Origin: Bosea thiooxidans
Lineage (GTDB): Bacteria > Pseudomonadota > Alphaproteobacteria > Acetobacterales > Acetobacteraceae
DNA: 64,000 bases
Reading direction: 5' to 3'
Assembly: GCA_943370125.1 (NCBI GenBank)
Contig: CALRPR020000008.1
Coordinates: 3,826-67,825 of the forward strand
This document shows positions 24,398-29,753 of this stretch, piece by piece; position 1 is the first letter of the stretch; the number at the start of each line of letters is the position of its first letter. The notes below the pieces were generated by a model, which was not told where the DNA came from, did not search any database, and was given only the letters and a program-made list of their open reading frames with translations. The position numbers were made by a program, and so were the translations under genes.

Positions 24398-24460
24398 TTT
24401 TTATCATGTCCTCGCCGGGGTGAATGGTGCAGCCTGCGCGCTTTGCAGGGGGAATTCTGC

Positions 24461-24985
24461 ATGGCCGAGCATCCCGAACCTCATCATCACCGCCATCATA
24501 TCCATTTGCGCACAGCCCTGTCGCGCGCGCGGAAAAGGCGGCGGAGTGAAGGCCCGGCGCCGCCGCTGACGCTCGGTGAAAGGCTTTCCGACCTGGTGGC
24601 GGCAACAGTCGGTTCCTGGCGCTTTATCCTAATCCAGTCCGGGCTATTGGTGGCCTGGCTGATCGCCAATGCAGCCTTTGGCGGTACTGCCTGGGACCCC
24701 TATCCCTTCATCCTGCTGAACCTGATGCTGTCCTTCCAGGCGGCCTATACGGCGCCGATCATTATGATGAGCCAAAACCGCCAGTCAGATATAGACCGCA
24801 TCCGATCCATTGCCGATTACCAGGTGAATATCCGCGCCGAGGCTGAAATCAGCCTGCTGCATGAAAAACTGGACCTCCTGCGCGAACAGCAGGTGGCGGA
24901 GCTGATTTCGTTACTCAAAGCATCCCTGTCCCGTATCGAGGCATTGGAGAACCGTATGCTGCCCGGCCCGCCGCCAGCCCCCTGA
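24461..24985 (+). CDS. DUF1003-domain membrane protein with His-rich N-terminus
   Basis: VGSWRF, WDPYPFILLNLMLSFQAAYTAPIIMMSQNRQ, AEAEI; GGGGA upstream of ATG 24461. Confidence 0.88.
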   Translation: MAEHPEPHHHRHHIHLRTALSRARKRRRSEGPAPPLTLGERLSDLVAATVGSWRFILIQSGLLVAWLIANAAFGGTAWDPYPFILLNLMLSFQAAYTAPIIMMSQNRQSDIDRIRSIADYQVNIRAEAEISLLHEKLDLLREQQVAELISLLKASLSRIEALENRMLPGPPPAP

Positions 24986-25072
24986 AAATCACCCTTCGAC
25001 TGGCCTCCCGGATATGCAAGACTGCCGATCGGCTGTGGCACCCGCCGCGGCCGATGGGTGAGGGGCGCTTGG

Positions 25073-25234
25073 ATGGAATGGATACTGCAAACCCTGATGA
25101 TGATGGGCGCCGCGGCTGCGTCCGTTTTCATCCATCGCGACTCCCCGAATTTCGAAGTTGTCCAGGGCATGATGGCCATTCTGGCGCTGGTCGGCTGCGT
25201 CCTGCTGATCACCTTCGCTTTCCGGAAAAAATAA
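25073..25234 (+). CDS. Small hypothetical membrane protein, 53 aa (absent from the ORF track)
   Basis: MEWILQTLMMMGAAAASVFIHRDSPNFEVVQGMMAILALVGCVLLITFAFRKK; GAGGGG 7 nt upstream; two hydrophobic segments and basic C-terminus; fills the gap and stops 4 nt before the next ATG. Confidence 0.65.
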   Translation: MEWILQTLMMMGAAAASVFIHRDSPNFEVVQGMMAILALVGCVLLITFAFRKK

Positions 25235-25238
25235 CCGC

Positions 25239-28200
25239 ATGACGGATCTTCGCGCCGCGCTGGAAGAAGCCCGCCGGGGACTTTTGGACCTTTCCACCCG
25301 CAATCGGCTGCTTTCGCTGCCGAAGCCGGGTGCATCACGCGGCGTCATCATTCTGGATGATGAGGATGCAGATTTCGTCCTTGGCGCGCTGCAAGCGGGC
25401 CGTGCTTTTGGCTTTGAAGCCTCGGCCGCCGCGCCCGAAGCTGCGCCGGAAGAAGCCAGCCCCGGCAAGCCGCGCCGTGCGCGTAGCGTGAAGGTGAAGG
25501 CGGAAGGTGTTGGCACCGCCAAAGCAGATACTGCCCGGGAAGAGTATCAGCGCGATGACAAGCTGCGTGTGCAGCTACCGCCGACAGACCTTGTGCGCCG
25601 GCTGCGCGACATCATGCAGGATGCACGCACGGCCCGCGAAGAAACCGGCGTGCCGACGCTTTACCTGGCGCTTGGTGCGCTGATCTGGCGCGATCCCGCG
25701 ACACCTGAGACCGAACGCCGCGCGCCGCTGGCGCTGCTGCCGGTGGCGCTGGAACGCGAAGGGGTATCGCAGAATTTCAAGCTGCGTGGGGCGGTGGGTG
25801 ATATCGCGGAGAATCTGTCGCTCCGCGAAATGCTCAAGGTGAATTTCAAGGCCACGCTGCCGGATTTCGATGCTGATGCCTATACGCCAACCGCCTGGGC
25901 GGAAGCCGTCGCAGTGCTGGTGGCAGAACGCGCAAATTGGCGTGTGGAGGCGGATGCGCTGGCGATTGGGCTATTCTCCTTCGCCAAATTCCTGATGTGG
26001 CGGGACCTAGGGCCTGAGGAAAACCCCTGTCTTGCTGATCACCCCATGGTGCGCGCGCTGGTGGGGGGCGAGGCGCTTTCCATCCCGCCGGTTTTTGCCG
26101 ATGACGCCGATGTGGATATGGAAATCCCGGTGGAGCGGCTTGATCATGTGATGGATGTGGATGGCAGCCAGGCTTTGGCGGCGGAAGCCGTCAGGCGCGG
26201 CGGGCATGTGGTGATCCAGGGTCCGCCCGGCACCGGCAAAAGCCAGACCATCAGCAATATCATCGCCCAGGCGGTGCTGGATGGGCGGAGCGTTTTGTTC
26301 GTGGCCGAGAAACTCGCAGCCCTTGAAGTGGTAAAGCGCCGGCTGGAGAGTATTGGCCTCGGCGCTGCCTGCCTTGAATTGCATTCGGAAAAGCAATCGA
26401 AGCGCGCGGTGCTGGATGAACTCCGCGCGACACTTTCCCTGCCCATGCCGCCCAAGCCGGAACGTGATGCGGTGGTGCGGCGCCTTGGGTCGCTGCGCGG
26501 GCGGATCAATCGCCATGCGGCGGCGATGCGCGGAACGGTTGGCGCTTCGGGCCTTGCGCTGCATCAGGTGATTGGCGCGCTGGTTGGCTTGCGGCAGCGC
26601 GGTGTTGCGGCGCCGGATTTTTCCGTGACTGCGGCGGAATGGGATGCGGGCGCAATTGAAGCCCGGCGCGATGCGATCAAGCTGCTGGCCGGCTATGCGG
26701 CAGAAGGCGGCGCGCAAAGCCCCTGGCGCGGCGTGATGGCGGATATCGGCCCCGCTGATGCGGATCGGTTGCTGGGGCGGCTGCCGGGTTGGATTCGCAC
26801 CTTTGCCGCGGCGGGTGCGGCGCTTGGCGTAGAGGCTGGACCGAAGGCAGCGGAAAGCGCGCTTGCCTTACGCCCGGCTTTGCTCGAGGCGCCGGCACAT
26901 GACTCGGCGACGCTGAAGCACGAAGCCTGGGCGGGCGATCTGGCACCGCTGGAAGCTTTGGTGCAGGCGCTGGGCGCTTTGCAAAAAACCAAGGCTGATC
27001 CGCAGCTTTTGCCGGGCGCTTTGGATGTTGCGGGCATTGCGGAAGCGCGCGCCACGCTTGCGGAGGCCGGCGGCGTGTTCGGCTTTCTGTCCGGTGCGCG
27101 GCGTGATGCCAAAACGCTCGCGGCGCGCATTGCGCGTGATGCGGAAAACCCGCTGCCGGCGCTTGATGCCGCGCTGGCCGGGCAGGCTGCGCGTGAGGCG
27201 TTGCGCCAAGGCGATGCAATGGGCCGCGCGGCGTTCGGGACGCTCTGGCCGCATGAGGCGAGTGATCCCGCGCCGCTGGCGGCCTTGCTCGCCTGGCGCA
27301 AAACCCATGGAGCGGCGGCGCTGACGGCACTCGCGCAGGGTGCCAAACCGGCAGAACCCGCGCCACTGCAAGCCGCACTCGATGCCTTTGGGGAATTGCA
27401 GCAGGCAACAAGGCTTGATGCGCGCATCGCCTTTAGTGCGGATAAACCCGCCTTTTCCGCCCTTGCCACGCGCTTGGGCGATTGGGCGTCGGCGCCGGAA
27501 GCACTCGATGCCTGGCTTGTCTGGCGCCGCGCCGCTGCTTCGGCTGCGGGGCTTGAGCCTTTGCTGGAGCGCCTGACTGATGGCCGTGTCGCGCCCGAAG
27601 CGGCCGAGGATGTGTTCTCCTTCGCGCTGCATGAAGCCTTGCTTCGCGCTGCCATGGCGCAGCACCCGGAATTGGCGGCTTTTGATGGCGCGGCAGCGGA
27701 TCGCTTGGTTGAGGATTTCCGCGAAGCCGATCGCGCGCGCATTACACTGACCCGCGCAGAAGCGGCCTATGCCCATGCGCTGCGTGTGAAGGAAGTGCGC
27801 GATGGCGCGCCGGGGATGACGGTTCTGCGCGGAGAGATGGAAAAGAAGCGCGGCCATTTGCCGGTGCGCGAATTGCTGCTGCGCGCTTCCCAGGCAGTGC
27901 AAAAAGCCAAGCCGATTTTTATGATGAGCCCGCTTTCGGTGGCACAATTCCTGGCACCTCCGCATGGGCTTAAGCCAGGGCTTTCCTTTGATCTGCTGGT
28001 CATTGATGAAGCGAGCCAGGTGGAGCCTGTGGATGCACTCGGCGCCATTGCGCGCTGCCGGCAAGTGGTGGTGGTGGGCGATGACAAGCAAATGCCGCCC
28101 ACGCGCTTCTTTCAGCGCATGACAGGTGAGGAAGCCGAAGAAGCCGCAGAGAATACCGCCGATGTTATCGCGGCGCGGGATGTGGAAAGCATCTTGGGGC

Positions 28201-29753
28201 TTTGCAATGCGCGCGGTCTGCCATCGGCCATGCTGCGCTGGCATTATCGCAGCCGGCATGAAAGCCTGATCGCGACATCCAACGCGGAATTCTACGATGG
28301 CAGGCTTTTCGTGCTGCCATCGCCGCGCGCACGCTCTGCCGCGCTTGGGCTTTCACTCCGCCGCGTTGAAGGGCGGTTTGACACGGGCGGCACCGGCACC
28401 AATGCCGAAGAAGCCCGCGCGGTGGCGGAAGCGGTCATGGCCCATGCGCGGGAGACGCCCGGCGATACGCTGGGTATCGCGGCGTTTTCCATCCGTCAGC
28501 GTGATGCGATCCTGAACGCGATTGAAGCAGCGCGGCGTGATAACCCGGATACGGAAGCCTTCTTCGCCGCCCATCCGGATGAACCCTTCTTCGTGAAGAA
28601 CCTGGAAAACGTTCAGGGCGATGAACGTGATTCGATCATGATTTCGGTTGGTTACGGGCGCGGCGCTGATGGCAAGCTTGCCATGCGCTTCGGCCCGCTT
28701 TCCGCCGATGGCGGCGAACGCCGGCTGAATGTGCTCATCACACGCGCGAAGAAGCGCTGCATCGTGTTTTCCGCCATCGGGGCGGATGACATTGACCTCG
28801 CGCGCGCCTCGGGGCGCGGGGTGACGACACTCAAATCCTTCCTCGCCTTCGCCGCTGCCGGGGATGCACCGCGCGCCGCAGCAGCAAAAACCCAGCCGGC
28901 GCCAATTGCGGCGGCCATTGGCAAGGCCATAAAAGCCGCGGGCAAGGAAGCCGTGCCGCGCGTTGGCATGGCAGGCCTGTTCCTAGATGTCGCAGCGCGA
29001 GAAGCCGGGAATTACGTGCTGGGCATTGAAGCCGATGCGGGCGATTGGGCGGCGCTGCGTTGCGCGCGTGATCGTGAAAGGGGCCGCGATAGCGCGCTTC
29101 AAGCGATGGGCTGGAAGCTCACGCGCGCCTGGTCGCTTTCTTGGTATGGCAGGCCAGAGGCTGAGGCCGCGCGTATCGCCGCACTGCTTGGTGCCGCACC
29201 TGCCTCCGCCACGCCGGAAGTAACAGCGCCCGCGCCGGAAACCGGCCTGGCCGAACCGTACCGAGAAGCCGCGCCGGAAGTGCCGAAGAACACCGCCATT
29301 ATGGATGTGCCCTTCGCGACTTTGGCTGGTATTCTTGCGGAAGTTATCAACGTTGAATCGCCGATTACCACTGAAAGCCTGGCTGAACGCGTGCGGCTAT
29401 TATGGGGGCTGGAAGCACTGCCCACGCCGGCACGAGATGCCTTGCGCCAGGCTTTGGCGCTTGCGCGGCAATTGCATGGCGTGAAGGAAGAACAGGGTTT
29501 TCTGCTTGCCGAAGGTGCTGCGATTGCGCCGCGGGACCGCCGCGCGGCAGGCGCCCATTTGCGGCGCGCTGCTGCCGTATCACCACGCGAAATTGCTGCC
29601 GCTGCCGAGAAACTTTTGGCGCTGCGCACGGCGACAACGGAAGCGGAACTCGCCGCCGGTATTCATCGTCTGCTGGGGTTGGATTCCAATGCCGCCACCG
29701 CCATCGCAGCGCGGCTTGCGGGCTTGATCGGCGCGGGTGTGGTGAAGCTTTAG
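25239..29753 (+). CDS. DUF4011 - SF1 helicase - Vsr/MTES_1575-like - DUF3320 protein (Hhe-type anti-phage protein)
   Basis: N-terminal LLDLSTRNRLL and EETGVPTLYLALG (DUF4011); GPPGTGKSQT, DEASQ, GDDKQMPP, HYRS, VQGDERD, RRLNVLITRAK; C-terminal YVLGIEAD...ARDRE...GWKLTRAWS then VESPI (DUF3320-like). Confidence 0.85.
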   Translation: MTDLRAALEEARRGLLDLSTRNRLLSLPKPGASRGVIILDDEDADFVLGALQAGRAFGFEASAAAPEAAPEEASPGKPRRARSVKVKAEGVGTAKADTAREEYQRDDKLRVQLPPTDLVRRLRDIMQDARTAREETGVPTLYLALGALIWRDPATPETERRAPLALLPVALEREGVSQNFKLRGAVGDIAENLSLREMLKVNFKATLPDFDADAYTPTAWAEAVAVLVAERANWRVEADALAIGLFSFAKFLMWRDLGPEENPCLADHPMVRALVGGEALSIPPVFADDADVDMEIPVERLDHVMDVDGSQALAAEAVRRGGHVVIQGPPGTGKSQTISNIIAQAVLDGRSVLFVAEKLAALEVVKRRLESIGLGAACLELHSEKQSKRAVLDELRATLSLPMPPKPERDAVVRRLGSLRGRINRHAAAMRGTVGASGLALHQVIGALVGLRQRGVAAPDFSVTAAEWDAGAIEARRDAIKLLAGYAAEGGAQSPWRGVMADIGPADADRLLGRLPGWIRTFAAAGAALGVEAGPKAAESALALRPALLEAPAHDSATLKHEAWAGDLAPLEALVQALGALQKTKADPQLLPGALDVAGIAEARATLAEAGGVFGFLSGARRDAKTLAARIARDAENPLPALDAALAGQAAREALRQGDAMGRAAFGTLWPHEASDPAPLAALLAWRKTHGAAALTALAQGAKPAEPAPLQAALDAFGELQQATRLDARIAFSADKPAFSALATRLGDWASAPEALDAWLVWRRAAASAAGLEPLLERLTDGRVAPEAAEDVFSFALHEALLRAAMAQHPELAAFDGAAADRLVEDFREADRARITLTRAEAAYAHALRVKEVRDGAPGMTVLRGEMEKKRGHLPVRELLLRASQAVQKAKPIFMMSPLSVAQFLAPPHGLKPGLSFDLLVIDEASQVEPVDALGAIARCRQVVVVGDDKQMPPTRFFQRMTGEEAEEAAENTADVIAARDVESILGLCNARGLPSAMLRWHYRSRHESLIATSNAEFYDGRLFVLPSPRARSAALGLSLRRVEGRFDTGGTGTNAEEARAVAEAVMAHARETPGDTLGIAAFSIRQRDAILNAIEAARRDNPDTEAFFAAHPDEPFFVKNLENVQGDERDSIMISVGYGRGADGKLAMRFGPLSADGGERRLNVLITRAKKRCIVFSAIGADDIDLARASGRGVTTLKSFLAFAAAGDAPRAAAAKTQPAPIAAAIGKAIKAAGKEAVPRVGMAGLFLDVAAREAGNYVLGIEADAGDWAALRCARDRERGRDSALQAMGWKLTRAWSLSWYGRPEAEAARIAALLGAAPASATPEVTAPAPETGLAEPYREAAPEVPKNTAIMDVPFATLAGILAEVINVESPITTESLAERVRLLWGLEALPTPARDALRQALALARQLHGVKEEQGFLLAEGAAIAPRDRRAAGAHLRRAAAVSPREIAAAAEKLLALRTATTEAELAAGIHRLLGLDSNAATAIAARLAGLIGAGVVKL

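Follow-up and report, generated by a model that had tools for sequence, protein, structure and literature searches.

A conserved two-helix membrane microprotein gene, probably placed beside a DUF4011 helicase gene by gene loss in a freshwater Roseomonas clade

Introduction

The DUF4011 / SF1 helicase / nuclease-fold / DUF3320 architecture is that of Prometheus ProA and Hhe, both of them single-gene anti-phage helicases, and no small membrane partner is known for either. ProA of Prometheus has been described as a single-protein system (PMC13700489). The window, by which we mean the whole stretch of 64,000 nucleotides that was analysed, encodes a helicase of the same architecture, which differs from ProA and Hhe in scoring below the cut-offs of both families, in being present in all 36 sampled genomes of its genus and in keeping its syntenic surroundings. 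Directly upstream of it lies a gene for a 53-aa membrane microprotein, which shares a short two-TM hairpin and a charged tail with small membrane effectors of defence systems, holins and the Pmp3/YqaE peptides; unlike those, it matches no profile, is absent from phage and plasmid collections, is inherited vertically and sits in a housekeeping context. The gene that precedes it encodes a DUF1003 membrane protein, a family for which a literature search returned no functional study, only passing mentions in two papers. In sister lineages DUF1003 and its small partner overlap at ATGA, as in a bicistronic membrane pair; the window has an 87-nt spacer in place of that overlap, and only two genera show the pairing.

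A sequence-only reading of the locus had taken the microprotein for a co-translated partner of the helicase, possibly the effector that replaces a degenerate nuclease in a new two-gene variant of Hhe. Here we compare the gene, its signals and its neighbourhood across the family Acetobacteraceae and beyond. Near clade denotes the freshwater clade of the window, and far clade denotes Neoroseomonas and other relatives.

Results

The microprotein ORF (25073-25234, forward strand) runs from an ATG at 25073 to a TAA stop at 25232-25234 and encodes 53 amino acids (MEWILQTLMMMGAAAASVFIHRDSPNFEVVQGMMAILALVGCVLLITFAFRKK) with two hydrophobic segments and an RKK tail. An SD-like GAGGGG (25060-25065, forward strand) lies 7 nt 5′ of the ATG, and near-clade orthologues keep a purine-rich equivalent of it (GAGG, AGGG or AAGGGG). 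The ATG at 25073 is the conserved start codon, an upstream GTG at 25058 being present in some species only. The stop is separated from the ATG of the helicase gene by the spacer CCGC (25235-25238, forward strand), whose length of 4 nt is kept in the near clade while its letters vary. The sequence-only reading had described the SD-like element, the two hydrophobic segments, the tail and the 4-nt distance in just these terms, and all of them were confirmed; it had also remarked that the helicase gene has no obvious separate SD, and no good one was found in the sequence 5′ of its ATG (CGGAAAAAATAACCGC). Its statement that the ORF is unlisted is true of the ORF track, from which a size cut-off alone kept it, and does not hold for its orthologues, which NCBI records of Roseomonas sp. 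freshwater MAGs already annotate as 53-aa hypothetical proteins. A "terminator-like" site inside the ORF (25188-25211) was dismissed as being at chance level (3 found versus 2.3 expected in a scan of 23.5-26 kb).

Judged by its composition and substitution pattern, the ORF is a genuine gene under purifying selection. Its GC content by codon position is 0.56/0.35/0.74, which is typical for a membrane protein in a 62% GC genome, and the overlapping frames show no coding-like pattern of this kind. In the microprotein frame dN/dS is 0.205 over 16 distinct close (near-clade) orthologues and 0.231 over 14 distant ones, and the variable sites are distributed 13/9/29 over the three codon positions. 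The remaining two sense frames give dN/dS values of 1.1-3.9, and a value of 0.30 was obtained for the antisense frame with shared third codon positions, where this is to be expected. The dN/dS check proposed with the sequence-only reading was hence borne out, with a value of about 0.2 that is low against the other sense frames. Three overlapping candidates were rejected as coding frames: a 62-aa ORF (25054-25242) on GC3 and a dN/dS above 1, and two antisense ORFs (24817-25338 and 24989-25522) on GC3 and dN/dS. The amino-acid sequence is still under selection in the near clade, since dN/dS is as low as 0.205 there and the loop motif of the family is fully kept.

AlphaFold2, run with a 27-sequence alignment, predicts a helix at residues 2-19, a loop at 20-26 and a second helix at 27-51 (mean pLDDT 81), and by this model the product is an inner-membrane helical-hairpin protein. 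The positive-inside rule suggests an N-in/C-in topology with the conserved loop facing the periplasm, because of the RKK tail and, in relatives, an arginine at position 7. The microproteins of the window clade carry PNFE in place of PNFG, have a Met-rich first helix and are without the arginine at position 7.

The window microprotein shows, in two alignments, the features of a family of 50-110 aa proteins with two TM helices, a short motif-bearing loop and a basic tail. The family consensus is M-x-x-W/L-hydrophobic-hydrophobic-R...G..A..F-V-A-R-D-S/A-P-N-F-x-V-V-Q-x-M, followed by the second TM helix and the basic tail, and the inter-helix loop (R)-D-S/A-P-N-F-x-V-V-Q-G/x-M is conserved (also written D-S-P-N-F-x-V-V-Q-G-M). 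Matches to the family profile reach E values of 1e-10 to 1e-33, and 242 clusters at 50% identity match it among 1.84 billion representative proteins. By tblastn, 34 of 36 genomes from the genus carry an intact copy of the microprotein gene; across the order the orthologue profile finds it in 55 of 301 genomes and 11 of 70 genera, all of them within Acetobacteraceae. Its distribution is patchy: an evenly drawn sample of the class has it in no more than 4 of 308 genera. The family, which is mainly alphaproteobacterial and has no name, includes many Neoroseomonas species, Roseomonas alba, Craurococcus roseus and Methylocapsa aurea among its carriers; members are annotated in Neoroseomonas oryzicola, N. 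soli, N. terrae and Roseomonas fluvialis, and the matches in Craurococcus roseus and Methylocapsa aurea are unannotated and came from a six-frame search. One 84-aa member from a JGI metagenome (P0004), which scores above the exact match, has an internal duplication of about residues 10-38, covering the loop and half of each helix; either a variant with three or four helices or a faulty assembly could account for it.

Known families gave no counterpart. Neither Pfam nor NCBIfam has a family for the microprotein or 27 of its members, among which only noise-level TM matches were seen; Pfam PF01679 (Pmp3/YqaE) matched none of the 27 at E ≤ 1, no PADLOC family matched the microprotein, and tblastn of plasmid and phage collections returned no homologue. 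The relatives in Neoroseomonas, Roseomonas fluvialis, Craurococcus and Methylocapsa, two-TM proteins of 50-70 aa, are like the window protein in length, hairpin, loop motif and basic tail, but the window clade forms a divergent branch, and only there does the gene abut the helicase gene at 4 nt. Near-clade microproteins are about 40% identical to their far-clade orthologues, against about 68-70% for DUF1003 and the helicase, a fast divergence in which adaptation to a new role may be at work instead of drift under a GC shift.

The downstream gene (25239-29753, forward strand) encodes a 1504-aa DUF4011 / SF1 helicase / MTES_1575 / DUF3320 protein. Its match to PADLOC PDC-S37 is full-length (1452 bits) and that to the PADLOC Hhe model partial, and the protein falls below the cut-offs of NCBIfam ProA (NF058533; 1204.7 bits, cut-off 1500) and NCBIfam Hhe (NF042953; 828 bits, cut-off 2000). 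The helicase is present in 36 of 36 sampled genomes of the genus with conserved synteny, flanked by ManC, DUF1003, AzlC and PtsP-like genes; by these comparisons the locus is a housekeeping one that is vertically inherited, and not a defence island or a mobile context. In one Microflora Danica MAG (G001; L032 / L143) the helicase and exchanger genes are each split over several frames and the microprotein and DUF1003 genes are intact, for which either indel errors of long reads or a genuine decay of the helicase gene into a pseudogene could be responsible.

Far-clade helicase genes possess upstream signals of their own. Six of them (L023, L029, L034, L035, L037, L038) have a conserved block, GGGACTCG-N10-13-GCTATAGG(G/T), in the 40 nt 5′ of the ATG, its end lying about 6-8 nt before the start codon. 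The block resembles the Caulobacter-type housekeeping promoter (TTGACGS / GCTANAWC); if it is a promoter, the helicase mRNA would be leaderless in these species. Other far-clade genomes have an SD-like GGAGAG element 5′ of the helicase gene instead.

Gene order differs sharply between the lineages. In the near clade (freshwater MAGs, at least 45 genomes) it reads DUF1003, a gap, the microprotein, 4 nt (5 in one genome) and the helicase. In the far clade and in genus g29 the ATG or GTG of the microprotein gene overlaps the DUF1003 stop codon as ATGA or GTGA at 26 distinct junctions, the next gene on the same strand is a CPA1 Na_H_Exchanger, sometimes with a DegP-like protease gene in between on the opposite strand, and the helicase follows 1.6-4.8 kb past the microprotein. 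The window therefore represents a derived, uncoupled state with respect to DUF1003, the overlap being absent here and present at all 26 sister-lineage junctions. The exchanger gene lies 20-430 nt 3′ of the microprotein gene (one alignment starts at -1) in far-clade g1, in g34, in two g42 genomes and in metagenome contigs. Genus g34 and one metagenome contig have the order SDR (or TctA), microprotein, exchanger, helicase, without DUF1003. A 138-aa remnant of the exchanger persists between microprotein and helicase in one genome (G243). The window genome has no exchanger orthologue anywhere, and an obligate link of the microprotein to the exchanger was rejected for this reason.

The DUF1003 (PF06210) gene of the window (24443-24985, forward strand) was assigned a TTG start at 24443 by the ORF tool, and the ATG at 24462 is the likely start, from which the product begins MAEHPEPHHH... 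within a His-rich N-terminus (MAEHPEPHHHRHHIH, 24462-24520). The gap to the microprotein gene, 87 nt here, ranges over 79-116 nt in the near clade, with one genome reaching 221 nt. An alignment of 17 distinct near-clade intergenic regions revealed a conserved block, AAATCACCCTTCGAC-N9/10-GGATATGCAAGACTG (24986-25024, forward strand): the first 39 nt of the spacer are near-invariant save for a variable core of 9-10 nt, and the rest varies freely. This block is a candidate promoter, regulatory or protein-binding site for a microprotein-helicase unit, and the site may have come about when the ATGA overlap was lost. No sigma-70 consensus was detected on the forward strand before the microprotein ORF when 23.5-26 kb was scanned.

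At the other end of the gene, the spacer letters of the near clade vary (CCGC, TCAC, CGTC, CGCC and others), and the stop codon is either TAA or TAG. AAA AAA closes the ORF in most near-clade species, although AAA makes up only 24% of Lys codons genome-wide. Because the spacer length is fixed while its letters and the stop codon vary, the ORF has an A-rich AAA AAA end and the helicase gene is SD-less, the near clade probably transcribes microprotein and helicase together and couples their translation. The idea of a co-translated partner is thus plausible as far as coupling in this clade goes, and falls short as regards a dedicated partner, the adjacency being derived and the two genes decoupled elsewhere.

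Linkage of the two genes is variable outside the near clade. In genera g1, g29 and g34 they usually lie on the same strand and at most 5 kb apart, and after loss of the intervening genes they are adjacent at distances of 71 nt (G006), 132 nt (G171) and 232 nt (G287). Roseomonas alba (G003) has DUF1003 and microprotein together, with helicase and exchanger next to each other on another contig; in G298 the helicase is 450 kb from the microprotein, and in G265, G282, G337 and G149 the two are unlinked. Tight adjacency is confined to the near clade and four other genomes.

Across the same 301 genomes of the order, 45 have both genes (23 of them from the genus of the window), 10 the microprotein only, 59 the helicase only and 187 neither. 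By profile search, then, a PDC-S37-type helicase is absent in 10 of the 55 microprotein carriers of this sample, and the microprotein is absent in 59 of the 104 helicase carriers. Such a helicase is missing from nine solid carriers that belong to other genera (g42, g36 and g86). None of 14 contexts examined beyond the Roseomonas group, at least nine of which lie outside the family, has a helicase, DUF1003 or exchanger gene nearby; those sampled were six same-family carriers from the order scan (two each from g42, g36 and g62) and, further, P0079, P0080, P0100, Craurococcus, Methylocapsa, three MAGs and families f104 and f178, the flanks seen in f104 and f178 extending over only about 1.5 kb. 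Homologues occurring mostly without the helicase, the outcome that the sequence-only reading had itself named as counting against it, were seen at the level of family diversity and in part at the level of genomes.

Neighbours of the distant members include a stress-response-like set, a TonB receptor/TPR pair, a Crp regulator, PriA/PAS kinase and PurK, with gaps of 200-300 nt on either side. The context of P0080 (L091-L094) holds a PhyR-like sigma/response regulator, a HisKA_2 kinase and the small proteins DUF3309 and DUF3008, and no EcfG promoter precedes the gene. This context raised the idea of membership in the general-stress regulon, which was rejected: no EcfG promoter (GGAAC-N15-18-CGTT) was found in 95 distinct upstream regions of the microprotein gene or near 24-25 kb of the window.

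Near-clade genomes (those at least 88% complete) measure 3.1-4.1 Mb with about 62% GC at the locus. Most of their Neoroseomonas relatives have 5-6.4 Mb, a few near-complete genomes measuring 4.2-4.7 Mb, and GC at the sampled loci is 68-75%. Genome streamlining, as in freshwater plankton, would agree with the local loss of the SDR, DegP-like and exchanger genes.

Discussion

We conclude with good confidence that the microprotein gene is real and conserved, that it came to lie beside the helicase gene through gene loss, and that the locus reflects the rewiring of an operon and not a dedicated two-gene defence system. Parsimony with g29 and g34 as outgroups makes the 4-nt junction a product of deletion. 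The ancestral order in the Roseomonas/Neoroseomonas group was TctA, SDR, DUF1003, microprotein, a DegP-like gene on the opposite strand, the CPA1 Na+/H+ exchanger and the helicase, with the start codon of the microprotein overlapping the stop of DUF1003 (ATGA). The freshwater, lower-GC Roseomonas clade then lost the exchanger and the DegP-like gene; this deletion placed the microprotein stop 4 nt before the helicase start, and the DUF1003 junction opened to 79-116 nt at the same time. Microprotein and helicase would now form one transcription unit in the window clade, in which initiation on the helicase gene would depend on ribosomes terminating at the microprotein stop. Coupling has, on this evidence, passed from the upstream to the downstream gene, and this is therefore operon rewiring; a functional partnership is not shown thereby. 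Some observations sit less easily with the idea that the two products are not partners, namely that the pair is usually on one strand within 5 kb in g1, g29 and g34 and that its adjacency is kept in G006, G171 and G287; on synteny alone, some functional link may exist.

The proposal of a dedicated, co-translated helicase partner, a membrane effector standing in for the degenerate nuclease in a new two-gene Hhe or Prometheus variant, draws on the 4-nt junction in all near-clade genomes (at least 45), on an SD-less helicase start preceded by an A-rich tract, on the strand and neighbourhood that both genes share in three genera and on the faster protein evolution on the near-clade branch. We consider it very improbable. 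The adjacency is derived by deletion from a state in which the microprotein overlapped DUF1003, 10 of 55 carriers do without the helicase and 59 of 104 helicase carriers without the microprotein, and the 14 contexts outside the Roseomonas group show no helicase nearby. Far-clade helicases of the same architecture have no adjacent microprotein, Prometheus is described as a single-gene system (PMC13700489), neither PADLOC, Pfam and NCBIfam nor the plasmid and phage collections gave a match, and the helicase, found in 36 of 36 genomes of the genus, belongs to a housekeeping locus. The microprotein is probably not a new defence effector, because its adjacency to the helicase arose only through gene loss, and the effector claim of the sequence-only reading finds no support in sister lineages that decouple the genes, in helicase-free carriers or in the character of the locus. 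A later co-option, in which deletion of the exchanger gene fused the operon and the fast-diverged microprotein was recruited as membrane anchor or effector of the helicase, has in our view a slim chance of being correct. Equally doubtful is the notion that in the window clade the ORF serves mainly to deliver ribosomes to the SD-less helicase start, its peptide being dispensable: in its favour are the short 4-nt distance, the lack of a helicase SD and the conserved AAA AAA end, but a near-clade dN/dS of 0.205 and a fully retained loop motif speak for a protein that matters.

What the protein does is best approached from its older neighbours. We tentatively propose, while thinking it somewhat more apt to be wrong than right, that it is a small accessory or modulatory subunit of membrane proteins, the two-TM DUF1003 protein being the best candidate, and the two possibly act in cation/proton homeostasis together with the neighbouring exchanger. 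The persistence of the gene without DUF1003 (G006, g34) and without the exchanger (window clade), as well as the distant members that stand alone in unrelated contexts, count against such a subunit. The same facts favour an autonomous small membrane protein without a fixed partner, for example a bilayer or envelope modulator like Pmp3/YqaE, whose neighbourhoods would be incidental: the gene survives the loss of DUF1003, exchanger or helicase, distant members lie in unrelated contexts with gaps of 200-300 nt, and the distribution is patchy (4 of 308 genera). We regard this as rather unlikely all the same, for the ATGA overlap with DUF1003 across two genera and the recurrent spacing of 20-60 nt to the exchanger exceed what random neighbours would show, no EcfG-type stress promoter occurs in the 95 upstream regions, and there is no sequence similarity to Pmp3/YqaE.

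The locus carries a caution for the reading of gene neighbourhoods, in that a small membrane ORF lying 4 nt from a defence-type helicase gene mimics a two-gene system, and the arrangement is yet a by-product of gene loss; naming it a new Hhe variant would be wrong. Should co-option nevertheless prove true, a defence or DNA-surveillance module would have been caught turning into a two-gene system. The work defines an unannotated family of two-TM microproteins, with no Pfam or NCBIfam model and with an invariant loop that probably faces the periplasm, and the ancestral ATGA coupling offers a starting point for work on DUF1003. The locus also illustrates operon rewiring cleanly, coupling having moved from the upstream to the downstream gene within one genus.
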